This document shows, piece by piece, positions 1-11,366 of a DNA stretch of 64,000 nucleotides (position 1 is its first letter; the number at the start of each line of letters is the position of its first letter). A program made the translations under genes and the position numbers. This DNA is from Spirochaetaceae bacterium (GTDB lineage Bacteria > Spirochaetota > Spirochaetia > B11-G9). The stretch lies in assembly GCA_015493635.1 (NCBI GenBank), contig WGCU01000053.1, forward strand, positions 813 through 64,812. The letters are read 5' to 3'. Below the pieces are notes generated by a model. That model saw only the letters and a program-made list of their open reading frames with translations, ran no database searches and was not told where the DNA came from.

Positions 1-548
1 AAAAATCTATTTCTGTTCATGTACGACTGGTTATCCATAAATCCAATCCCTGTGGGAAAAGGAGGTTGATGAAGAAAAACCATCGTATCGTGGTTTGATG
101 CCAGTTCATCTTCAAGTGCATCGAGTTCACCATCTGTCAAACTTCCTGATGCTTTTCCGGGTTCCACAGAATCCAGGAGAATTATTTTCTTGCCATGTTC
201 CTGAAACGAGTGGAATATTCGGCTATCCTTATAATTTTTCAGGTATGAAAGTTCACTGAAAACCTCTGCCATATTTGCTTTATTATCGTGATTTCCCGGG
301 ATAATGTAGTAGGGGATGGTAATCCCTGACAGTAAATCTTTTGCAATCTCATAGGACGAGATACTTCCGTCGTCACTTACATCGCCGGTTATACAAAGAA
401 AATCTACGTTAAACGGCAGTTTGTTTATATGCCGTATAAAATTCTTTAAACTCTGCAAAGAATCAGATACTTCATATGCGTTTATACCGTTTCTACATAT
501 ATGAAAATCTGAGGCTTGAGGTATTGTCAGAAAATTTCTTCCCATCAT
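1..548 (-). CDS. Calcineurin-like metallophosphoesterase, CpdA/Icc/GpdQ type (3' end truncated by window edge)
   Basis: Manual translation from ATG at 548 (or 545): MMGRNFLTIPQASDFHIC...CITGDVSDDG...IIPGNHDNK...LLDSVEPGKASG...VFLHQPPF, i.e. DxH, GD, GNHD and H metal-ligand motifs. RBS AGAGGGA upstream. Open to position 1; absent from ORF track because no stop lies in the window. Confidence 0.88.
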   Translation of the reverse strand, partial: MMGRNFLTIPQASDFHICRNGINAYEVSDSLQSLKNFIRHINKLPFNVDFLCITGDVSDDGSISSYEIAKDLLSGITIPYYIIPGNHDNKANMAEVFSELSYLKNYKDSRIFHSFQEHGKKIILLDSVEPGKASGSLTDGELDALEDELASNHDTMVFLHQPPFPTGIGFMDNQSYMNRNRF

Positions 549-570
549 TTTCCCTCTAAAGCTGCTGTTT

Positions 571-1668
571 TTAAGCAAGAACTTCTTTCATTATTTTTAG
601 AAAATCTTTACAGTCTTGCGGATATATTTGACCCATATTTGCAATCTGAAACATATTCTGTTCCAGAAGCGGACCCTTTCCCAAGTAGAGCACATACCCC
701 CGTTCTTCCATGGTACTGATAAAAGTATCAATATTCTTATCTTCAGGTAAAAACACAGAGGTCACTGTGTTAGACATAGTATGCTCATCAGAGAGGAGCA
801 TTTTTAAATGAAGATCCCTGACCCCTTGCCGTATAATTTCCGCGTCTTTTTTATATCGGGCTATTACCTCTTCCTGACCCTCCTCAAAAAGTACATCCAG
901 GGCTTTATTCAATGTAATAAACATGACGACTGAAGGGGTGTTAGGTGTTTGATTATGTTTCTCTGCTTCTCTTACATGATGTTGTAAATTCAAATAGACA
1001 TTTCTGGGAGGTACCGTATTTTCTATTTTTTTGTAGGCATTTTTGTTAATGCAGATAAAAGAAACACCGGGCTGCCCGGCAACTGCCTTATTCGGAACTC
1101 CGGTGCAGAAATCTATGTGGTCTCTGACAACATTAACCTCTTCGCCTCCTATGGCGCTTATTGCATCGACATGGTACATTTTGTTATATTTTACCGCTAG
1201 ATCTCCTACTTCATGAACAGGATTTACCATTCCCGTACTTGTTTCCTGAAATACCATTGAAATGAGACTGATATCCTGATCATTTTTTAAGGCTGTCTCT
1301 ATTCTTCCTAGATCAGGAGACGTTCCCCATTCAAATTCAAGCAGATTTAAACCGAGGTGGTAACATTCAATGATATCTTTCAACCGGTTACCGAATACAC
1401 CGTTTGTTATAAGGAGTACCTTTTTCCCATCTCCAACAACCGACGATAATACTGTTTCATTTGAAGATGTTCCTGAGCCGCTTACAACAACGGTGGTATA
1501 TTCTTCTTCCGTTGCACGGAAGAGGCGTATGAGTTTTTTCCGAACCTCTCCATATACATGTTCAAACGAGGGCCTTCTGTGGCATAGATCCGGTGCTAAA
1601 GCAGCTTCTTTTACTCTTTTGTCCGTTAATACCGGGCCTGGCGCAAATAAAAATTTCCTTTCGAGCAT
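571..1668 (-). CDS. PLP-dependent class V aminotransferase, PhnW/AEP-transaminase-like (substrate uncertain)
   Basis: Motifs FAPGP, GSGTSSNE, NGVFGNR, ETSTG, DAISAIGG, PNK (PLP lysine); RBS GGAGG. C-terminal FQIANMG instead of FRIGxxG. Confidence 0.85.
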   Translation of the reverse strand: MLERKFLFAPGPVLTDKRVKEAALAPDLCHRRPSFEHVYGEVRKKLIRLFRATEEEYTTVVVSGSGTSSNETVLSSVVGDGKKVLLITNGVFGNRLKDIIECYHLGLNLLEFEWGTSPDLGRIETALKNDQDISLISMVFQETSTGMVNPVHEVGDLAVKYNKMYHVDAISAIGGEEVNVVRDHIDFCTGVPNKAVAGQPGVSFICINKNAYKKIENTVPPRNVYLNLQHHVREAEKHNQTPNTPSVVMFITLNKALDVLFEEGQEEVIARYKKDAEIIRQGVRDLHLKMLLSDEHTMSNTVTSVFLPEDKNIDTFISTMEERGYVLYLGKGPLLEQNMFQIANMGQIYPQDCKDFLKIMKEVLA

Positions 1669-1706
1669 TGTCTCTCCTCCGATTGGATATAGCTAAACTA
1701 GGTAAT

Positions 1707-1767
1707 ATGATATCTAGTTGTCAAGTTGTTATGATAACCTTATAACACAAATTAAATGACAAGTCAA
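1707..1767 (-). promoter_or_regulatory. sigma70-type promoter of the aminotransferase with overlapping operator
   Basis: Minus strand TTGACT (1767-1762), 17 bp, TATAAG (1744-1739); palindrome TGTTAT-N9-ATAACA at 1727-1747; ATGATATC at 1707-1714. Colinear with 6627-6687. Confidence 0.75.
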
Positions 1768-1804
1768 GAAATTCTTACATAAAGGTTCTCATGATATTTT
1801 AATG

Positions 1805-1836
1805 AAACTTCTGCAGTAAGCCAGCAGAAGTTTTTT
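1805..1836. terminator. Intrinsic terminator after dctM (potentially bidirectional)
   Basis: Inverted repeat AAACTTCTGC (1805-1814) / GCAGAAGTTT (1824-1833) with A/T tracts on both sides, about 80 bp after the dctM stop. Confidence 0.7.
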
Positions 1837-1916
1837 CTACGAAAAATAGAATAGGTCATAATCCCTGGATCTCATTCTCTCATTCTCCCTTGGGGTTATG
1901 ACCATTTTGAGATGTA

Positions 1917-3236
1917 TCAATTACCGAAATACTTGTAAGGTAGCCATGTAACAATATCCGGAAACAGAATCAAAATTGCAATTGTTCCTGCCATTATAAA
2001 TACAAAGGGAACTATTGATCGATATATATCTCCAATTGTAATTTCTTTGGGGGCCATAGCTTTCATAAGAAAAAGATTATACCCGAAAGGAGGAGTCAGA
2101 TAAGCTATCTGACATGTGATGGTATAAAGCACACCATACCAGATTGGATTAAATCCTAAACTTATTACCAACGGGATATACAGGGGAGCAACGATGATCA
2201 GCATAGCAGTATCATCAAGAAAAGTTCCTAAAAGAAGGAAAGAAACCTGCATGGAGACAATCGTTCCAATCGGCCCAAATCCATGGCTAAGGAAGAGCGT
2301 TTTGATAGCATGCACAGCTCCAAGACCATCAAAAATTGCAGCAAAAGCCATTGCTGACATAACAACCCACATAAACATGGCACTTACACTTAACGATTGG
2401 GTCATGACCTTGTTCATAACCTTCCAGTTTAACCGCTTTTTTATCGCGGCAGCAATAATGGTAGCAACGGCACCGGTAGCAGCACTCTCAACCAGGCTTG
2501 TTACTCCCATGAAAAATAGTCCTGACATCATCAAGATAATAAAGAGAGGGAGAATCCCGCCGCGCAGTGCATGAATTTTTTCTTTAAACGGTACGTCCCA
2601 TTCTTCTCTGGACAATGCCGGTCCTAATTTTGGTTGGATCTTACACCGGACAACAATATAGATAACAAATAATGTTGCCATTAAAAGACCCGGCATAACA
2701 CCGGCCAGCCAGAGTTGTCCTACCGGCTGTCTGGCAATCATGCCATAAAGCACCAGTACAACACTCGGAGGTATCAAAATACCCAAGGAACTACCAGCCT
2801 GAATGACTCCTGTTACCATTTTTTTGTCATATTTCTTTTTTAGCATTTCAGGAAGTGCAACACTGCTCCCGACGCTCATACCGGCAACGCTCAACCCATT
2901 AATAGCAGATATTATTGCCATAAGTATAATGGTCCCGATAGCTAAACCGCCTTTAAGGGAGCCCATCAAAATATGAATTAGTTTATACAGGTCTTCCGAT
3001 ATTTTTGACTCAGAAAAAAGATAACCGATGAATACAAAAATAGGCAGCGTAACAAGAGGATACCAGTTTATAAGGGTAAAAGCGGAATGAAACCCCATAT
3101 CTATACCACCGGGTCCCCAGAGAATGACTGCAAATATGGAAGCAACCCCTCCTATAACAGCATAAATATGCCGGCCTGACAGGAGTACAACAAACATGGT
3201 AAGAAACATCAATAATGCGATAAATGAATAACTCAC
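1917..3236 (-). CDS. dctM: TRAP transporter large permease
   Basis: About 12 hydrophobic helices; GSSLGILIPPS and LTPPFG motifs. Start placed at GTG 3236 (GGAGG upstream, GTGA overlap with dctQ stop) rather than 3263. Confidence 0.92.
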   Translation of the reverse strand: MSYSFIALLMFLTMFVVLLSGRHIYAVIGGVASIFAVILWGPGGIDMGFHSAFTLINWYPLVTLPIFVFIGYLFSESKISEDLYKLIHILMGSLKGGLAIGTIILMAIISAINGLSVAGMSVGSSVALPEMLKKKYDKKMVTGVIQAGSSLGILIPPSVVLVLYGMIARQPVGQLWLAGVMPGLLMATLFVIYIVVRCKIQPKLGPALSREEWDVPFKEKIHALRGGILPLFIILMMSGLFFMGVTSLVESAATGAVATIIAAAIKKRLNWKVMNKVMTQSLSVSAMFMWVVMSAMAFAAIFDGLGAVHAIKTLFLSHGFGPIGTIVSMQVSFLLLGTFLDDTAMLIIVAPLYIPLVISLGFNPIWYGVLYTITCQIAYLTPPFGYNLFLMKAMAPKEITIGDIYRSIVPFVFIMAGTIAILILFPDIVTWLPYKYFGN

Positions 3237-3781
3237 AGGTTTTCCTCCACATTTTTGATCCACGAAGTATCTTGACCGAGTGCTATGGTAATATCCTTTA
3301 TAAGTTCAGATATAACCTGCAATAACATTAATGAAATTCCTACTGTTGCAATTAACTTCATTGGTGCTATTGGTGGACCCCAAGCCGAATAATTTTTCTG
3401 CGCATATTTTATTGCAAATGAGGTACTGCTTATTCCCCCAAGTAAGAGTCCTGTTAGATACGCAAGACTGAACACAAATGTAATAACATCAACAATAGCT
3501 TTCTTTCTTCGTGACCATTTATCATAGAAAACATCCATTCTGACATGACCGCCGATGAGAAGAACAAAAGCACCTCCCAAGAGATAATAGGTACCGTTGA
3601 TAAATTCGGTCATTTCCAAAGCCCATTTGTCTGGATGATTAAAAATCGTTCTTGAAATGGCTTCATAAGTCAAAACACCTATCATCACCAGAATCAGATA
3701 TTTTATTACCTGACCTACTATTGTGCTTATTGAGTCTACAGAACGTACGTAAATTTTTAATGGCTTAATCATAAAATCCAT
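3233..3781 (-). CDS. dctQ: TRAP transporter small permease
   Basis: 4 TM segments, GHVRMDVFY motif, lies between dctP and dctM. Confidence 0.9.
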   Translation of the reverse strand: MDFMIKPLKIYVRSVDSISTIVGQVIKYLILVMIGVLTYEAISRTIFNHPDKWALEMTEFINGTYYLLGGAFVLLIGGHVRMDVFYDKWSRRKKAIVDVITFVFSLAYLTGLLLGGISSTSFAIKYAQKNYSAWGPPIAPMKLIATVGISLMLLQVISELIKDITIALGQDTSWIKNVEENL

Positions 3782-3810
3782 TTCTCTCCTTACTCAATTA
3801 GTATCAAACG

Positions 3811-3848
3811 CTGCCATATCTACTGTGTGAAACAGCAGAATATGGCAG
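3811..3848 (-). other. Intergenic stem-loop between dctP and dctQ (mRNA stabiliser or attenuator)
   Basis: CTGCCATAT (3811-3819) / ATATGGCAG (3840-3848) inverted repeat with internal pairing. Confidence 0.5.
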
Positions 3849-3904
3849 TGAAACAAGCCACCCTGAAATAAATCAAGGATTAGCAGAATAAAACTACTGA
3901 CTTA

Positions 3905-4999
3905 TTATTTACCGCACGTATAGGGAGGACCCGCTTTTGCTCTAACTGCTGCGTATTTCTTGAAAGCTGCAATTACTCTAGCAGAACGGGGACTCTTTTT
4001 GGAAAGTGTATCCCAGTACTTTTCAGCCTGTTTGTCAACGCCTGTCCACTCATTTGCCGGGATTGATGTAAGTTCCATTTTGTCACCACTCGTCCGGTAT
4101 TTAGCTTCACCCCACCAGTACCAGTTCAATCTATAATAATTTGATGCCTGAATTGTCATCATCAGCAGCCTCTGTAAATGATCAGGAAGAGCTTTCCATG
4201 ATTTTGTATTTACAAAGAATCCGCCGGACCATGCACCTGAAATAGGATTAGTCAATAAATATTTACATACATCAGCTACTCCGGTAGTGTAAAGTTCTGT
4301 GGCACCTGACCAGGATACTCCATCGAGCATCCCTGTCTGAAGCGCCATCTGTACATCTTCAACCGGCATTACTACAGGTACAACACCGTATGTTTCCTCA
4401 AGAAATTTGCCATTGAAAAGGGATGTAAAAAGTCTTAATCCTTTAAGATCTTTTACATGACGGATTGGTTTATTACTGGCAATAAGACAAGGATCCCAGC
4501 TGCCCTGAGCCAGCCAGGTTACACCTGGTATCTCATCATAAGCCTCTTTCCAGATCTCATTCAAACCATAACGATTCCACAAAACGTCAATATCAAGTCC
4601 TATTCTCCCTGCAGCTGGAAAATATGCGGAGAATATTGCAACATCAGCAGGTGAACCCATGGACTCATCATCACTGACAACCATATCTAAAGTTCCTTTT
4701 TGAAGAGCGTTAAACATTTCCCCTTGAGGGACCAGCTGATCAGCTCCGTATAATTCAATTTCCATTTCTCCATTGGCGATCTTGTTAAATTCTTTAACCT
4801 TGTTGCCAAAGATTTCATCGTTCATTGATGGGCCGGCATACGTTTGCAGCCTCCACTTAATCATTTTCTTTTTTGGTGCAGCCTGCGCAGTTCCTCCTGT
4901 TTCTGCCTTTTGGCCGCAACTAATGAACACTATGGAAGCCATTACTACCAATGCAGTAAGTCCCAAAACCAAGGGTCGCTTAAAAAGATTTTTTTTCAC
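3905..4999 (-). CDS. dctP: TRAP substrate-binding lipoprotein (DctP/TakP family, non-carboxylate type)
   Basis: GTG start with AGGAGG; signal peptide with lipobox FISC; WRLQTYAG, DLKGLRLFT, LQTGMLDG motifs. Confidence 0.9.
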   Translation of the reverse strand: MKKNLFKRPLVLGLTALVVMASIVFISCGQKAETGGTAQAAPKKKMIKWRLQTYAGPSMNDEIFGNKVKEFNKIANGEMEIELYGADQLVPQGEMFNALQKGTLDMVVSDDESMGSPADVAIFSAYFPAAGRIGLDIDVLWNRYGLNEIWKEAYDEIPGVTWLAQGSWDPCLIASNKPIRHVKDLKGLRLFTSLFNGKFLEETYGVVPVVMPVEDVQMALQTGMLDGVSWSGATELYTTGVADVCKYLLTNPISGAWSGGFFVNTKSWKALPDHLQRLLMMTIQASNYYRLNWYWWGEAKYRTSGDKMELTSIPANEWTGVDKQAEKYWDTLSKKSPRSARVIAAFKKYAAVRAKAGPPYTCGK

Positions 5000-5046
5000 T
5001 TTTACCTCCTGTGTAAAATCTGATAATATTTTTACGAACTTAATAT

Positions 5047-6540
5047 TTAAGTCCGATATTCCAAAATTCCAATCACTTTAAATAATTTTTCCCAGATACG
5101 AAAACGTTCATCAAGGAAAGGATCAAACGGCTCTTGAAAAACAATTGAATCCAAATTAAAGGCTAAAATATCATCATAGCTTTTCAGAAGCCCCATTTCC
5201 AAAGACGCAAGAAAAAAACAACCTAATGAAGTAAGATCCTCATTCTTAGATTTAATAATTTTAATACCAGTTAGTTGGGCAATGGTCTTAAGAATATAAC
5301 GGGACTTGCTGACTCTGCCGTCAACAGAAAGATTTCTTATTTCAATACCTGTTTCTTTCTCTATAAGTTTAATGTTTTGTACTATTCTAAAAGCAATTGC
5401 CTCCAGAACAGAACGAACCAAATCACTTTTGGTAGTTTGTAAACTCATGCCGAGAAATGCAGCAAAAGGCTCACTCTTCCAGTAGGGAGCTGAAACGCCG
5501 GAAAGAGCAGGAATAAAGAAGGGTTGTGTAACAGGCTTGATATTTTCAATAGTATCAATATCAGAATATTCTTCTAACAGGTCGTTTTTTTTAAGCCATT
5601 CTATTGCTGAGCCTACTGAATATATTTGACCCTCATATATATATGATTTTTGATCAAACATTTGAGGAAAAAGAGATTTTATAATTATACTGCTTTTATT
5701 TTTGGAATCTTTTCCACTGTTTACTTGTAAAAATCCACCGGTACCCAAGGTTAATTTGGCTTCACCTTTTCTGAAACATCGATGCCCAACAAGCGCTGCC
5801 TGTTGATCTACGACAGAAACCAGAATGGGAGCCTTGACCCCGAAACACATTTCAGGATCAGTTGTACCATAATTATTCATGGCCGGGGAAATAGCCGGCA
5901 TACTCTTACTATTAAGGTGAAAAAAATTAAGTATCTTATTATCCCATTGCAATGTTTCAATATCCAGCAGCATCGTCCGTGAAGCAGTTGTAAAATCAGA
6001 TTTTAATTCTTTTTTGCTGATTAATTTGTTAATTAACCATACTTCTGATGTTGCCATTACAAGATTGTTATTATCCATCTCTTTTTTTACATTACTGACG
6101 TTTTGAACTAACCATTCCATTTTGGCAGCTGAAAAATATGAACTTGCAAACAATCCTGTTCTATTCTTGACGTAATCATTTAAATCGGTATCTTCGATTA
6201 ATTGTTGAATCCGATCTTCTCCTCTTCCGTCCTGCCAGCTGATTGCATTATATAAAGGAGACAAATCATTTTTTCTGAACGGAATAATCGTTTCTCCCTG
6301 GTTATCAATAGCTACAGCACATACTGTTTCAGGATGAATTTTTGACTTTTTAATAACATCTTCAATACCTTTTCGAATGCTTCCTAATACTTCTTCAGGA
6401 TTCTGCTCTATAAAATTTTCAGAACTTTCAACAAAACGGATAATATTTGTAGATTCTGCTATTTTACTGCCGGAAGTATCATACAAAATAACCTTTGTAG
6501 AGCTTGTGCCTTGATCAATAGTAAGTATATATTTTTTCAC
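5047..6540 (-). CDS. FGGY-family carbohydrate kinase, glycerol-kinase-like but divergent
   Basis: DQGTSSTK, NQGET, WQDGR, YFSAAK, ASRTML, DQQAAL, GTGGF, APYW motifs; GTG start with GGAG. Confidence 0.85.
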   Translation of the reverse strand: MKKYILTIDQGTSSTKVILYDTSGSKIAESTNIIRFVESSENFIEQNPEEVLGSIRKGIEDVIKKSKIHPETVCAVAIDNQGETIIPFRKNDLSPLYNAISWQDGRGEDRIQQLIEDTDLNDYVKNRTGLFASSYFSAAKMEWLVQNVSNVKKEMDNNNLVMATSEVWLINKLISKKELKSDFTTASRTMLLDIETLQWDNKILNFFHLNSKSMPAISPAMNNYGTTDPEMCFGVKAPILVSVVDQQAALVGHRCFRKGEAKLTLGTGGFLQVNSGKDSKNKSSIIIKSLFPQMFDQKSYIYEGQIYSVGSAIEWLKKNDLLEEYSDIDTIENIKPVTQPFFIPALSGVSAPYWKSEPFAAFLGMSLQTTKSDLVRSVLEAIAFRIVQNIKLIEKETGIEIRNLSVDGRVSKSRYILKTIAQLTGIKIIKSKNEDLTSLGCFFLASLEMGLLKSYDDILAFNLDSIVFQEPFDPFLDERFRIWEKLFKVIGILEYRT

Positions 6541-6618
6541 AATAACTCCATAATTACTCTCTTAAGCATACTCTCATTCCTTTTCTATATATTTTTAAAA
6601 ATAAGGCAGTTAGTCCAA

Positions 6619-6687
6619 ATAACAACATGATATCAAATTATACGGTTGTTATGATATGATAATAACATGAATATATGACCATGTCAA
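6619..6687 (-). promoter_or_regulatory. sigma70-type promoter of the kinase-TRAP operon with overlapping operator
   Basis: Minus strand TTGACA (6687-6682), 17 bp, TATTAT (6664-6659); palindrome TGTTAT-N9-ATAACA at 6647-6667; ATGATATC at 6627-6634; extra half-site ATAACAAC at 6619-6626. Confidence 0.75.
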
Positions 6688-6816: not shown

Positions 6817-8190
6817 TTAAATGGAGCCGCTCAGTTTCAATACCATGGATCGGAAGGTATCCCCACGGTCAAACTCGTTTAAAAACATACCGAATGAAGT
6901 TGCGCCGGGAGAAAAAATAACAGAGTCGCCCCGTCTGCTGTCGTTATAAGCTGCTGAGACAGCATCCTGAAGATGTACGAAGGGTCCCTGGAAAGAGATG
7001 TGCTCAGCCTTAAGAAGAGGTATCATTCTGTCTGTTGCTGTGCCTTTCAGAAGATAAATGGATTCCGGTATTCGTGCGGCTTCGGCAAATCCGGTAAAAT
7101 CAAGATTCTTGTCTGTCCCCCCGCAAATAAGAAGAACATGCTCCTGAATGCTTTCGACGGCAGCTGCCGCAGCCTGAGGAATCGTTGAAGCGCTGTCATT
7201 GTACCAGGTAACCCCGTTTATAACCGTTACTTTTTCCATACGGTGCGGAATACCACTAAAAGCGGAAAGTTCTTGTGCAATAAAATTGTTATCCAGCCCC
7301 TGAAAATTAAGAACGGAGGCAGCGTAGAGAAGGTTCAGTTTGTTGTGTTTCCCCTTGATATTTGTTTCTTCAGGAAGAACCTTTTTTACCTTTCCGTTTT
7401 CCTGAATAAAACCGGATTCTTCTGTCAGAAACGCACCGTCAATAGAAGGGGGCAGGGGGTCCTTTGAAACAAAAAAAGATTTTGCAGTTGATTCAGAGGC
7501 AAAAATTCTTCCTGTTGGTTCATCGAAATTGCAGATAAGATGACTAGTACTGTTCATATCCTGATATATTAGTTTTTTGTCGTCAATATATTCCTGCATA
7601 CTTGAATATCTGTTCTGGTGATCATGCATTATATTTGTTATAACTGCTGTTTTGGGATACAGCAGATGCTTATCCTTGAGATCCGCCAGCTGCCAGGAGG
7701 AAAGTTCAAGAATAACAGGATCTTCCCTCTCTACGGTACATTTATCTGCAAAAGTAAGGGGAGAGACGGTAATATTTCCTCCAAGTTTTGTTTCGGGAAA
7801 ATGTTTTTTCAATACATGGTATATGGCTGAAACGGTTGTTGATTTCCCCTTGCTTCCGGTAACAGCTATTAAAGGCCGTTTGTTCAGAGAAAGGAAAATT
7901 GATATATCTGTCTCTACCTGTTTTGCTGCTCTCAGGAAGGGGGATGAAGGGAGTACTGCCGGGTTTTTAATAACGATGTCCGCTGTTTCAAAATCTGAAA
8001 GTTTATGTTCTCCCAGAGTATAAGATATCGGGTACTTTTCAAGTTTTTGCATGGATGGGGCAAGGACTTCTTCAGATCTCAGATCTGTCACTGTGACACG
8101 GGAACCGTGTTCTGCGAAAAAAAGAGCGGAGGCGAGCCCTCCTCCGTGAAGGCCAAGTCCCATAACGGTTACTTTTATATTAAAATTCAA
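6817..8190 (-). CDS. murD: UDP-N-acetylmuramoyl-L-alanine--D-glutamate ligase
   Basis: GLGLHGG, TGSKGKSTT P-loop, ELSSWQL, HQNRY, NDSASTIP, SPGATSF...F..RG motifs; exact start uncertain (TTG). Confidence 0.92.
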   Translation of the reverse strand: MNFNIKVTVMGLGLHGGGLASALFFAEHGSRVTVTDLRSEEVLAPSMQKLEKYPISYTLGEHKLSDFETADIVIKNPAVLPSSPFLRAAKQVETDISIFLSLNKRPLIAVTGSKGKSTTVSAIYHVLKKHFPETKLGGNITVSPLTFADKCTVEREDPVILELSSWQLADLKDKHLLYPKTAVITNIMHDHQNRYSSMQEYIDDKKLIYQDMNSTSHLICNFDEPTGRIFASESTAKSFFVSKDPLPPSIDGAFLTEESGFIQENGKVKKVLPEETNIKGKHNKLNLLYAASVLNFQGLDNNFIAQELSAFSGIPHRMEKVTVINGVTWYNDSASTIPQAAAAAVESIQEHVLLICGGTDKNLDFTGFAEAARIPESIYLLKGTATDRMIPLLKAEHISFQGPFVHLQDAVSAAYNDSRRGDSVIFSPGATSFGMFLNEFDRGDTFRSMVLKLSGSI

Positions 8191-9124
8191 TAGAGTATTC
8201 CTTCATATCAAAATCATTAAGGTACGCTTGTACGGTAAAAGACCGCCATACATTTTTCCAGAATAGCGGTACTTTTGATTTTAAAGTTTTAAATTCCGGT
8301 AGATCTGAACTAAACGGAGTATGATGCAGCGATTGTTGAATTTGATCAAGTGCGGGAAGAACAAATTCTCTTGCTTTATGGAGGTAGATAAGGTGCTGTT
8401 TCCTCCCTTCAGGGCTTAGATCAATAAGGGTATTGCACAGTGTTCTGTACTTACAGGTAAAGGGATAGTAGGGGTAGAGGGTTTTTCCCTCCGGAATAAA
8501 AAGCTTGGAAAGAAATTTTGTAAGTTCGGAATCTATCCATATCCCTTCTATGTAATAACCTCTCCCTGTTTCACCAATCCATGTCTGCGATATATTCTGT
8601 TCGATAATAAATTTTTTAACCTTTCCTTTTTCTGTTACAACATCCTTCAAGGGCATGAGGTCAGATTCGAGGAAGATATTTCGTGTTTTAAAACGATTTG
8701 TAGTATCATTTGTACCCCGTATCAGTATTTTCCCATCATTTGGTCTGAAACTTAAATCGAGCCTTAGAAGATACAAATACATCTGCTCTTTTATCTTGAG
8801 TATCTGGTAAAAAGAGGGATGAAATATTTCAGCAGGATCAAAAAAATAGGTAACTCTGCTGAAAACTGACGGAAGTACCGGCAGGAGCTGCAGAAGCAGG
8901 TCTTTAAGGGCGGAAATGTAGGTTTTGCCGGGGACCGGAATGGTTACATCGTGATGAATAGGAAAGGAATAGATGGTAAAAGGCGCCGGCAGCTTGAGGA
9001 AAAACTCTTCATTTTGGTTAAAATGAGTTGTATGGACTTTTTTCATTTTATAATTGTTTTTTAAAACATCATTTATTTCTTTGCTGGCAGAATGCACAGT
9101 AATTTCATTGTGTATCTTCCTCAT
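8180..9124 (-). CDS. Hypothetical cytoplasmic protein, translationally linked to murD
   Basis: 314-aa ORF overlapping the murD start; no family recognised. Confidence 0.75.
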   Translation of the reverse strand: MRKIHNEITVHSASKEINDVLKNNYKMKKVHTTHFNQNEEFFLKLPAPFTIYSFPIHHDVTIPVPGKTYISALKDLLLQLLPVLPSVFSRVTYFFDPAEIFHPSFYQILKIKEQMYLYLLRLDLSFRPNDGKILIRGTNDTTNRFKTRNIFLESDLMPLKDVVTEKGKVKKFIIEQNISQTWIGETGRGYYIEGIWIDSELTKFLSKLFIPEGKTLYPYYPFTCKYRTLCNTLIDLSPEGRKQHLIYLHKAREFVLPALDQIQQSLHHTPFSSDLPEFKTLKSKVPLFWKNVWRSFTVQAYLNDFDMKEYSIEF

Positions 9125-9458: not shown

Positions 9459-11366
9459 ATGGAATCAGAAACAATTCTTTCCCGTATAAAATCACCAAAA
9501 GATGTTAAAGCTCTTCTCCCTTCAGAGCTCCCCTTTCTTGCACAGGAGATCCGTGATCGGATTATCGATGTTGTTCATAAAAACGGCGGTCATCTTGCTT
9601 CTAATCTTGGTGTTGTTGAGCTAACCATTGCGATGCACCGTGTGTTTGATTCCCCGCAGGATCAGTTTGTCTGGGATGTCGGCCATCAGTGCTATACTCA
9701 TAAAATCATAACGGGAAGAAATGACAGCTTTGACACTATTCGCCTTAAAAATGGTTTAAGCGGCTTCCCCAAGCGTAATGAGAGTATACATGACCCTGTT
9801 GAAACAGGGCATGCCTCAACTGCAATCTCAGCGGCTTTGGGAATATTACGGGGGAAGAGACTCCAAAAAGATTCAGGAAAAGTTATTGCGGTAATCGGAG
9901 ACGGGGCAATAACCGGCGGTATCGCTTTCGAGGCACTGAATCATGCCGGGCAGCTTAAGGATGATTTAATTGTTATCTATAATGATAACAATATGTCCAT
10001 AAACAAAAATGTCGGAGGTTTCTCCTCCCGTTCCACTATTTCAAGAAGTGCTTCCTATATCAGCCGTGTTACCGCTACAAGAAATTATCAGCGTATACGG
10101 GACATGATAGACAAAGGGCTGCTTAAAACACCTTTTTTCGGCTACAGAATTTTTCAGGCTGTCATGCGTTTGAAAAAGAGCGTGAAAGCTGTGTTCCTCC
10201 ACGAAACATTTTTTTCTGAACTCGGTTTTGAGTATGTCGGGCCTTTAGACGGGCATTCGTTTTCAATGCTTATACGGGTACTCAAGCGGGTGAAAAAACT
10301 CCATAAACCGGTTGTTGTTCATGTTGTGACCCAAAAAGGGAAAGGGTTTAAACTGGCTGAAGATAATCCTGTACGGTATCACGGTATAGGGCCAATGACT
10401 TCTGTTGATGGTAAAATTGAACCGCAACTGGGGGTAACCTTTACAGAGGCCTTTGCTGAGGCCCTTGTAAAGCTTGCAGACAAGGATGAACGGATTACCG
10501 CTGTGTCAGCGGCAATGGTAAAGGGTACCGGTCTGACCCGTTTTCAGGAAAAATATCCTGAAAGGCTTTTTGATGTCGGAATTGCCGAACAGCATGGAAT
10601 TACCTTCTCCGCGGGGCTGGCAGTATCGGGTATGAAACCGGTAGCAGCTGTCTATTCAACTTTTATGCAGAGGGCTGTGGACCAGGTTATTCATGATGTT
10701 GCTCTTCCCGGGTTACCGGTAGTTATTGCCATGGACCGTGCGGGCCTTGTTCCGGGAGACGGTGAAACCCATCAGGGAGTTTTTGATATTTCGATATTCC
10801 GGGCTGTTCCGGGAATAGAGTTCCTGGCTCCCGCTTCTCAAGATGAAATGGAGAGTATGCTTGCGTATGGTATTGATGCTTCCGTGCCGGTTTTGATCCG
10901 ATACCCAAAAGCTGTTTGTCCTCCTGAATTTTCAGGGACAGATAAACCTCTCGAACGGGGAAGGGGCGTTTTTATTAAAAAAGATACTTCCAGTATCCTT
11001 CTTGCTGCTACCGGCGGTCTTGTTGGAGAGGTGCTGAGTGCTTCTGAAGGCCTTGCGGCAAGGGGTGTCAAAACTGATATTTATAATCTGCGGTTTATCA
11101 AACCAATTGATGAAAAATATCTGGAAAGTATTCTTTCTCAGTATGAAAAAGTTTTTTTTATTGAAGAAAATTCCGGTAAAGGCGGTGTTGGAGAATATAT
11201 TGCTTCCCTCATTCAAAAGCATAATCGGGATATTGATTTCCGTTATCTCTCTGTTCCCGATCTCTTTATTCCCCAGGGGACCCGGGCTGAACTTCTTGCA
11301 TTCTGCGGTATAGATTCGAAAAGTATCATGAATTCAGTTTTATCAGCAGTGAAAGTAAAGGTTTAA
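9459..11366 (+). CDS. dxs: 1-deoxy-D-xylulose-5-phosphate synthase
   Basis: [22 protein letters not shown] motif, [24 protein letters not shown]. Confidence 0.97.

Follow-up and report, generated by a model that had tools for sequence, protein, structure and literature searches.

A candidate amino-alcohol catabolic route built from familiar protein families in a Spirochaetaceae genome

What would a bacterium do with a relative of glycerol kinase and a relative of a phosphonate transaminase that are encoded next to a transporter of the ethanolamine type? This question is raised by one end of a 64,000-nucleotide stretch of DNA from a Spirochaetaceae bacterium (assembly GCA_015493635.1, contig WGCU01000053.1, positions 813 to 64,812), which we call the window. 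Within its positions 1-6687, six genes on the minus strand encode an FGGY-family kinase, the subunits DctP, DctQ and DctM of a transporter of the tripartite ATP-independent periplasmic (TRAP) type, a class-V pyridoxal phosphate (PLP) enzyme and a metallophosphoesterase. An initial annotation, made from the letters of the DNA, proposed here an undescribed module for the uptake and breakdown of an amino alcohol, with serinol as the best candidate. That the module exists as a functional unit is well supported by what follows. As to its role, the reading that we favour, at about even confidence, is the repressor-controlled uptake and catabolism of a small 2-amino alcohol, most likely ethanolamine from phospholipid head groups.

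Ethanolamine from membrane lipids is a major source of nitrogen and carbon in guts and sediments. In bacteria its use is known to proceed through the B12-dependent Eut microcompartment, through the gamma-glutamyl pathway, or through a kinase and a phospho-lyase of class III. The set described here would be an undescribed amino-alcohol catabolic route built from familiar protein families. In agreement with the initial annotation, which had not recognised the combination as a known pathway, full-text searches of the literature turned up no account of it, nor of an amino-alcohol kinase of the FGGY family or a catabolic route for serinol; a review devoted to serinol names no such route either (PMC3222319).

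Binding protein, kinase and PLP enzyme

Three consecutive genes match PF03480, PF04290 and PF06808 and thus form a complete DctPQM set: the solute-binding lipoprotein DctP (3905..4999, minus strand), the small membrane subunit DctQ (3233..3781, minus strand), which is co-conserved with the cassette, and the large membrane subunit DctM (1917..3263 or 1917..3236, minus strand). DctP belongs to the EtoX/Csal_0678 family. Its phmmer match to PDB 4UAB/4XF5, which is Csal_0678 of Chromohalobacter salexigens, has an E-value of 2.3e-108 at about 51% identity. Csal_0678 has been crystallised with ethanolamine, of which Glu220 holds both the amine and the hydroxyl. It has no equivalent of Arg147 of SiaP (PMC4646407). 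EtoX, its Phaeobacter orthologue, binds ethanolamine with a dissociation constant of 7.9 uM, whereas phosphoethanolamine, phosphocholine and glycerol phosphates are not bound. In these two bacteria the transporter serves the gamma-glutamyl-ethanolamide pathway.

Does the window protein share these features? Phe192, within DLKGLRLF, aligns by hand with Phe174 of Csal_0678, and we take both to stand at the SiaP Arg147 position, by a second hand alignment, of Csal_0678 with SiaP. The platform glutamate is kept as Glu235, which corresponds to Glu217 of the crystallised chain and is taken as native Glu220 with an inferred numbering offset. Carboxylates were rejected as TRAP substrates, as the selectivity arginine is absent.

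When 15 cassette-type DctPs are compared with 119 proteobacterial EtoX proteins, 28 positions are invariant within each group but different between them, including Trp195->Val, Phe176->Ser, Thr178->Phe, Asp218->Leu and Glu206->Met. By hand alignment the EtoX-type Trp195 falls on SiaP Phe170, a ligand contact. Because of these group-specific positions we describe the likely ligand class as ethanolamine-like, not as proven ethanolamine. They also bear on a rival explanation, in which the substrate is a C3 amino-diol: serinol would be imported, phosphorylated by the kinase to serinol phosphate and transaminated to dihydroxyacetone phosphate (DHAP), or 3-amino-1,2-propanediol would be turned into glyceraldehyde-3-phosphate, and two enzymes would feed glycolysis. 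The bulky-to-small changes Trp195->Val and Phe176->Ser could enlarge the candidate pocket, and with (S)-2-amino-1-propanol bound to Csal_0678 in PDB 4XF5, the fold would tolerate C3 ligands. The nearest characterised binder, however, takes ethanolamine, and a C3 substrate appears rather unlikely to us overall.

Compared with the EtoX/Csal_0678 systems of Chromohalobacter, Agrobacterium and Phaeobacter, the window set is alike in the binding-protein family, the Phe at SiaP Arg147, the platform Glu, and DctQ/DctM. It differs in that a kinase and a PLP enzyme stand in place of the genes for the gamma-glutamylase, dehydrogenases and amidohydrolase; neither the window nor any cassette locus encodes the gamma-glutamylase, the two dehydrogenases or the amidohydrolase of that pathway. 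Moreover, the window DctP is a lipoprotein in an anaerobe, whereas EtoX is a Tat-exported proteobacterial protein. As a separate observation, in five loci compared with the window (L003, L004, L082, L085, L087) conservation is far higher for the TRAP proteins (DctP 71-91%, DctM 78-93%) than for the kinase (40-70%) or the PLP enzyme (51-84%); the parts may have separate histories, or the transporter may be strongly constrained.

The kinase (497 residues; 5047..6540, minus strand; Pfam FGGY_N and FGGY_C) is derived from GlpK and is proposed to act on amino alcohols. It aligns over its full length with glycerol kinases and scores below the cut-offs of the GlpK models TIGR01311 (385 bits vs 590) and NF000756 (375 vs 498). 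The GlpK motif NQRET reads NQGET, which places Gly82 at the position of Arg83, and this glycine is invariant in the kinase relatives P0001-P0060. Two further changes accompany it, WQC->WQD (C105D) and GDQQ->VDQQ (G244V), so that the window kinase carries the triple G82/D104/V244. The pocket residues Glu84, Trp103, Tyr135 and Phe270 of GlpK and its catalytic Asp245 are kept and invariant (E83, W102, Y135, F270 and D245 in the window kinase). The FGGY fold and the ATP motifs that TIGR01311 members share are present as well. The triple change lies in the glycerol pocket, where one positive charge is lost and one negative charge gained, and the resulting pocket, more negative by a net two units, would fit a substrate bearing an ammonium group. 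Its linkage also sets it apart from GlpK: the gene lies with those for an amine transporter and a PLP enzyme and not with glpF, glpD or glpP.

How firmly is this signature tied to the PLP enzyme? Among loci picked solely by their PLP enzyme, all complete FGGY kinases adjacent to it are without Arg83 (31/31); the full triple is present in 28 of the 31 and a close variant in the other 3, and five fragmentary kinases adjoining the PLP enzyme are consistent with the triple. Of 67 loci with an Arg-type glycerol kinase, 0 have the PLP enzyme close by. Certain kinases with the triple change even pass NCBI's GlpK cut-off and share about 50% identity with true GlpK but only 30% with the window kinase. 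The change therefore follows the partner PLP enzyme and not overall relatedness. The scan of genomes with the kinase alignment recovered mostly Arg-type GlpK-like genes of Bacteroidota through the motif IDQGTxxTK and serves in this respect as a negative control only. Separately, two Bathyarchaeia loci (L006, L007:10001-14113) encode an archaeal kinase that scores as GlpK and has Gly at 83, Val at 244 and Cys at 105, followed by an IlvE-type class-IV aminotransferase and an amino acid-polyamine-organocation (APC) permease. This aminotransferase was rejected as a partner, since it passes IlvE cut-offs and is probably an ordinary neighbour.

The PLP enzyme (571..1668, minus strand) matches PF00266 with an E-value of 1.6e-21 and has PhnW/AepZ as its nearest family. 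It remains below the cut-offs of the PhnW models, with 283 bits vs 361 for TIGR03301, 216 vs 401 for TIGR02326 and 221 vs 296 for NF010006. The Schiff-base Lys194 and Asp168, which faces the pyridine nitrogen, are kept and invariant. PhnW Arg340, by contrast, is Gln341 in 120/120 relatives (FQIAN vs FRIGN of PhnW). Where PhnW has WDDDY, the clade has HRxxxF with an invariant His30-Arg31; in a weak alignment (probability 26%), hhalign places the pair on His41-Arg42 of SerC, the phosphate site of phosphoserine aminotransferase. Overall the enzyme is only remotely like SerC models (E ~1e-12), with which it shares class V and the His-Arg motif and from which it differs by a Gln for the equivalent of the carboxylate-binding Arg335. 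It is a candidate O-phospho-amino-alcohol aminotransferase, possibly a phospho-lyase.

Could the enzyme simply be a 2-aminoethylphosphonate transaminase? The likeness to PhnW/AepZ and PhnX extends beyond the class-V fold and the Lys/Asp pair to the gene order, as a phosphohydrolase gene is often next, echoing phnW-phnX. The differences are the Gln for Arg340, HRxxxF for WDDDY, and neighbourhoods free of phnX, phnY, phnA or a phosphonate transporter. In about 90 loci none of phnX, phnY and phnA was found beside the PLP enzyme; the nearby haloacid dehalogenase (HAD) proteins are of the Cof or IIA type, and an ENPP-like protein has only 264 residues. Aminoethylphosphonate was rejected as the substrate on account of these missing genes, the lost arginine, the ethanolamine-type binding protein and the lack of any role for the kinase. 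This touches the broader view that no dedicated pathway exists and that an ordinary glycerol kinase and an aminoethylphosphonate transaminase lie by chance beside a TRAP transporter. Automatic annotation of the relatives as 'glycerol kinase' and '2-aminoethylphosphonate-pyruvate transaminase' speaks for it; both proteins, however, fall under curated cut-offs and lack their defining arginines, phnX, phnY and phnA are missing from the vicinity, linkage of the genes holds across phyla and gene orders, and both promoters share one operator. We regard it as extremely improbable.

The lost arginine also opens a quite different rival, in which ethanolamine is phosphorylated and the class-V enzyme releases acetaldehyde, ammonium and phosphate. 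This would be a non-homologous copy of the ethanolamine kinase/ETNPPL route that needs neither B12 nor a microcompartment. Universal loss of the class-V amino/keto-acid arginine fits an enzyme that needs no keto acid, phosphorylation would be a sensible activation of the leaving group, and the kinase/phospho-lyase paradigm is established for class-III enzymes. On the other side, we know of no class-V phospho-lyase that could serve as a precedent, and the clade-invariant Arg31 and Arg280 could stand in for the lost arginine. A phospho-lyase is, in our view, unlikely. With or without it, the logic is the same as in the route of ethanolamine/aminopropanol kinase and ETNPPL-type phospho-lyase, where an amino alcohol is phosphorylated and a PLP enzyme acts on the ester. 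The differences lie in the folds, FGGY instead of choline-kinase/APH and class V instead of class III, and in the lyase activity, which here is only proposed.

Taken side by side, the three proteins bear out what the initial annotation had read from each of them: Phe stands at the SiaP Arg147 position of DctP (by hand alignment, and in line with PMC4646407 on Csal_0678), Gly replaces GlpK Arg83 in NQGET, and Gln replaces PhnW Arg340 in 120/120 relatives. With an anion-anchoring arginine gone from all three, a small cationic amino alcohol holds up as the best substrate class.

Genomic contexts of the cassette

Is the combination found elsewhere? When 185,579 species genomes were searched with the kinase alignment, three close kinase relatives came up, one in a Desulfocapsa and two in metagenome-assembled genomes of Spirochaetia, all of them with the same TRAP genes (71-85% identity); the PLP enzyme is present in both close-relative loci that are not cut by a contig end. 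Across Spirochaetia, Desulfobulbaceae and metagenomes the combination of kinase, PLP enzyme and EtoX-type TRAP recurs, with no fewer than three gene orders. Among further kinase relatives, the order enzyme-kinase-PQM with a GntR regulator occupies the same murD/dxs locus in a sister spirochaete, the order enzyme-PQM-kinase-LysR is found for two separate kinase relatives, and kinase-PQM with a phosphoesterase and a DeoR regulator is found in Desulfomarina. The co-conservation that the initial annotation had asked a neighbourhood search to reveal is thus there, across phyla and gene orders.

A scan of metagenomes with the PLP-enzyme alignment returned 80 loci. Here the enzyme-kinase pair is seen with four transporter types, namely the EtoX-type TRAP, a PotD-like ATP-binding cassette (ABC) system, a Dpp-type ABC system, and an APC permease with an AraC regulator. 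Judged by their families, the EtoX-type TRAP, the PotD-like ABC system and the APC permease beside the enzyme would all be amine-type transporters. Many cassettes consist of no more than genes for the transporter, kinase, PLP enzyme and a regulator. In L090, L095, L105, L150 and L154, too, PotD-like genes come after that for the PLP enzyme. A HisJ/PHP phosphatase and a histidine kinase, encoded convergently to the APC-type loci, were seen repeatedly only among contigs that are close relatives, and were left out of the evidence.

Other neighbours hint at the chemistry. Without a GlpK-like kinase, the PLP enzyme adjoins a gene of the choline/ethanolamine-kinase family in L113 and L123. In L116:831-11104 and L121 the order is a PRD-type regulator, the phosphotransferase system (PTS) components EIIA, EIIB and EIIC of the ascorbate/galactitol type, a URO-D-like methyltransferase, a corrinoid protein, HPr and enzyme I, and then the Arg-less PLP enzyme; L128 has a shorter version, in which EIIB, EIIC and enzyme I are missing and just the regulator, EIIA and HPr are present. 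To our knowledge, the coupling of a PTS to corrinoid demethylation is not a recognised arrangement. Along the same lines, non-pyrrolysine MttB-family and corrinoid genes lie beside the PLP enzyme in seven loci (L108, L110, L113, L117, L118, L123, L124), which may represent a route of demethylation from phosphocholine to phosphoethanolamine. The MttB-family protein MthB demethylates phosphocholine, not choline, after the action of a dedicated choline kinase (PMC12155760). The MthK/MthB system of Eubacterium limosum is comparable in that amino alcohols are handled as phosphate esters, and in several metagenomic loci MttB/corrinoid genes flank the PLP clade; unlike there, Mth-type genes are absent from the window, and the described Mth system has no PLP enzyme.

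Two further neighbours bear on the product. In L090, L099 and L105 an aldehyde:ferredoxin oxidoreductase gene is found upstream of that for the PLP enzyme, and in L110 one is found a few genes downstream; this would suit the acetaldehyde of a phospho-lyase, a compound that anaerobes handle easily and for which the minimal cassettes would suffice. A TAL/FSA-family protein adjoins the PLP enzyme in L119, L151 and L161; this neighbour, like the recurrent phosphatases, is left unexplained by a phospho-lyase.

In three loci the triple-change kinase is paired not with the PLP enzyme but with a flavoenzyme resembling glycerol-3-phosphate oxidase (L009:9995-15514; L049:9989-14141; L084:5597-11491). 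These sets consist of a DAO/Fer2_BFD protein and a Pyr_redox_2 protein, to which DUF1667 is added in L009, and look like a diverged paralogue of the classical glpK-linked dehydrogenase cluster in L169. The flavoenzyme of L169 is 31-43% identical to those beside G-type kinases, with no interpretable active-site difference in this comparison to one canonical sequence. For the C3 amino-diol the swap is a point in favour, as if a glycerol route had been copied for 2-amino-glycerol; for the phospho-lyase it is a point against, as an FAD oxidoreductase in the place of the PLP enzyme suggests conversion of an amine to a carbonyl and not an elimination.

Phosphoesterases form the last recurrent context. 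The metallophosphoesterase of the window starts at 545, 25 nt past the PLP-enzyme gene, and runs off the window edge, so that only the N-terminal 181 of its 277 residues are encoded there (1..545, minus strand). The complete gene is found on L001, a 7.6-kb metagenomic contig with genes identical to the window set. The protein is of the GpdQ/CpdA class: its nearest structures, PDB 2DXL/2ZO9 (E 7e-25), are deposited as 'phosphohydrolase' and are GpdQ, and it falls below the cut-offs of the CpdA and SpdA models. In the L001 protein SDFH, GDVSDDG, GNHD, FLHQPP and GHIH provide the metal motifs DxH, GD, GNHD, H and GHxH and align to 2DXL. This type occurs in only 4 loci (3 besides the window's), each with a PotD-type ABC system, and because it recurs so rarely we regard it as accessory, with no fixed pathway step and no place in the conserved core. 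Its inclusion in the initially proposed gene set is right as far as its presence goes; the gene is truncated at the window edge and stands outside the conserved core. More generally, a phosphohydrolase gene comes directly after the PLP-enzyme gene in several loci, and five unrelated kinds of phosphoesterase adjoin that gene, namely two Metallophos types, an ENPP-like protein, a Cof-type HAD and a HAD-IIA. In NCBIfam a 2-phosphoglycolate phosphatase family is the top match for the HAD-IIA, with a similar but weaker match for the Cof-type HAD; all of these matches lie below cut-off.

Order of the steps and identity of the amine

How might these parts work together? In a first step, the EtoX-type DctPQM would import the amine. 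The glycerol-kinase paralogue with its acidic pocket (Arg83->Gly, Cys105->Asp, Gly244->Val) would then phosphorylate the hydroxyl of the amine. Third, the PhnW/SerC-related class-V enzyme, with a SerC-like His-Arg phosphate site and a Gln for the arginine that binds carboxylate or phosphonate, would take the amino group off the O-phospho-amino alcohol, yielding phosphoglycolaldehyde from ethanolamine or DHAP from serinol. As an accessory step, the GpdQ-like phosphoesterase could free the amine or its phosphate from glycerophosphodiesters, or dephosphorylate the product. Which genes are present, their co-conservation, the changed residues and the kinship of DctP with an ethanolamine binder are observed; from the sequences and their contexts we infer the order of the steps, the identity of the amine and the type of PLP reaction.

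We favour the view that phosphorylation precedes the PLP step and that a phospho-amino alcohol is the substrate of the PLP enzyme, because the choline/ethanolamine-kinase-like, PTS, MttB and phosphoesterase contexts together speak for it. The order kinase before PLP enzyme, which the initial annotation had assumed, thus gains from the wider contexts. Could the order be reversed? From the free amino alcohol, the PLP enzyme would then make dihydroxyacetone, glyceraldehyde or glycolaldehyde by transamination, the kinase would phosphorylate this product, and the phosphatases would act upstream on imported phospho-amines. GlpK phosphorylates dihydroxyacetone and glyceraldehyde, which makes such a role for the kinase conceivable, and loss of the phosphonate-binding arginine fits a substrate free of anions. 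The TAL/FSA aldolases of L119, L151 and L161 could replace a kinase for dihydroxyacetone or glycolaldehyde, and phosphoesterases co-occur with ABC importers. Yet a neutral triose would not be expected to go with a kinase pocket that has gained an Asp and lost an Arg, and the PTS and the choline/ethanolamine-kinase-like gene by the enzyme imply that the substrate is phosphorylated before the PLP step. The reversed order is therefore quite improbable.

Returning to the order that we favour, which amine is handled? Ethanolamine is the favoured candidate by the binding-protein family, the neighbours related to head groups, and its natural abundance. The choline/ethanolamine-kinase-like, MttB, GpdQ-like, ENPP-like and phosphoglycolate-phosphatase-like HAD contexts point to C2 head-group chemistry at least as much as to C3. 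Serinol, the substrate named by the initial annotation, is not established, as the nearest characterised binding protein binds ethanolamine and the contexts favour C2 at least equally. The C3 amino-diol nevertheless has several points on its side. The minimal cassettes would go well with a product that is itself central, such as DHAP or glyceraldehyde-3-phosphate. Serinol phosphate differs from phosphoserine by having -CH2OH for -COO-, and the change from Arg to Gln is the one needed in a SerC-like site. The SerC-type PSAT1 slowly makes serinol phosphate from DHAP (PMC9283133). Against it, serinol is rare in nature (PMC3222319), whereas the module is widespread among the anaerobes of sediments and guts; DHAP would be destroyed by a phosphatase encoded right after the PLP enzyme; and it is not obvious how neighbours of the MttB, choline-kinase-like and ENPP-like kinds would relate to serinol.

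Several observations weigh against the ethanolamine transaminase reading that we prefer. Phosphoglycolaldehyde is not a central metabolite, and DHAP or acetaldehyde would be a better product for the minimal cassettes. A transaminase must bind a keto acid, yet the usual arginine is gone. The triple-change kinase of L009 sits in an apparent glycerol-type cluster. Finally, given the 28 positions at which the DctPs differ from EtoX, Trp195->Val and Phe176->Ser among them, the ligand may not be ethanolamine.

What would follow if the module worked in the proposed way? We hold it slightly less probable than an even call that it is a route for ethanolamine or serinol, widespread in anaerobes, that does without B12 or a microcompartment; that a GlpK lineage became an amino-alcohol kinase through R83G/C105D/G244V; that the PLP enzyme is the first class-V O-phospho-amino-alcohol aminotransferase or phospho-lyase; and that lineages feed this core step through TRAP, ABC, APC, PTS or MttB systems. 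It would then be a fourth ethanolamine route, made from a retooled glycerol kinase and a phosphonate transaminase, and would change the prediction of ethanolamine or serinol use from genomes. Many automatic annotations as 'glycerol kinase' and 'AEP transaminase' would be corrected, and three residues would serve as a marker for a new kinase specificity. The two new enzyme activities could be useful for making amino alcohols. In terms of evolution, it would offer a clear case of pathway recruitment via the loss of anion-binding arginines in three unrelated proteins.

Promoters, operator and locus layout

Both upstream regions share the layout TTGAC(A/T), a 17-nt spacer and a TG-extended -10. 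The promoter of the kinase-dctPQM unit (6647..6687, minus strand) has its -35 TTGACA at 6687-6682 and its -10 TATTAT at 6664-6659, matching 11/12 positions of a sigma-70-like consensus in addition to the TG. That of the PLP enzyme-phosphoesterase unit (1727..1767, minus strand), located by alignment of the upstream regions and a palindrome search, has the -35 TTGACT at 1767-1762, again with a TG-extended -10. Both are overlapped by the palindrome TGTTAT-N9-ATAACA, whose only copies in the 64 kb are 6647-6667 and 1727-1747; 0.29 copies are expected by chance, and 1/100 shuffles reached two. Because the palindrome is common to both promoters and absent elsewhere in the 64 kb, one shared repressor would most likely control them. 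Similar operator sites occur about 100 bp upstream of the PLP-enzyme gene in L090, L092, L097, L102 and L105, and two of these five loci, L092 and L105, encode a GntR-type regulator.

A split into two transcription units between dctM and the PLP-enzyme gene is plausible. Two hairpins after dctM (1806..1903, minus strand), judged by folding energy a likely terminator or attenuator between the units, span 1903-1854 with a following U-run (-17.9 kcal/mol, z -1.6) and 1833-1806 (-13.6 kcal/mol, z -3.5); neither was flagged by a scan for consensus terminators. An Rfam scan of the whole window found no riboswitch or other RNA family. The start of dctM is ambiguous. GTG at 3263 would give 448 residues and a 31-nt overlap with dctQ; the alternative ATG at 3236 gives 439 residues and the usual 4-nt overlap, and is the gene call on L001.

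In its layout the locus is largely as initially annotated. Pfam and NCBIfam scans confirm the same-strand kinase, dctP, dctQ, dctM and class-V aminotransferase genes with the metallophosphoesterase, and the two units with near-identical promoters are recovered in the common -35/-10 layout and operator palindrome. The proposed extent of the module, 1-6687, stands for the genes; 6541-6687 is promoter and not coding. The set indeed lies beside core genes, being flanked by murD (8190..6817) and dxs (9459..11366), and the AT-richness noted for the kinase holds, as its GC fraction of 0.344, against 0.409 for the whole window, is the lowest of any gene in the region.

Two observations concern the neighbours on either side. 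Just past window position 1, L001:7245-7596 carries a PotD-like gene for a polyamine-type ABC binding protein after the phosphoesterase; a 33-residue open reading frame at its start runs into a stop and the gene goes on in a different frame, suggesting a frameshift or a mistake in the assembly. On the opposite side, 8180-9124 (minus strand) encodes a 314-residue protein that overlaps the start of murD by 11 nt and has no Pfam or NCBIfam match in our scans; it is syntenic in the sister genome, and its orthologue in L082 is listed as DUF8295.

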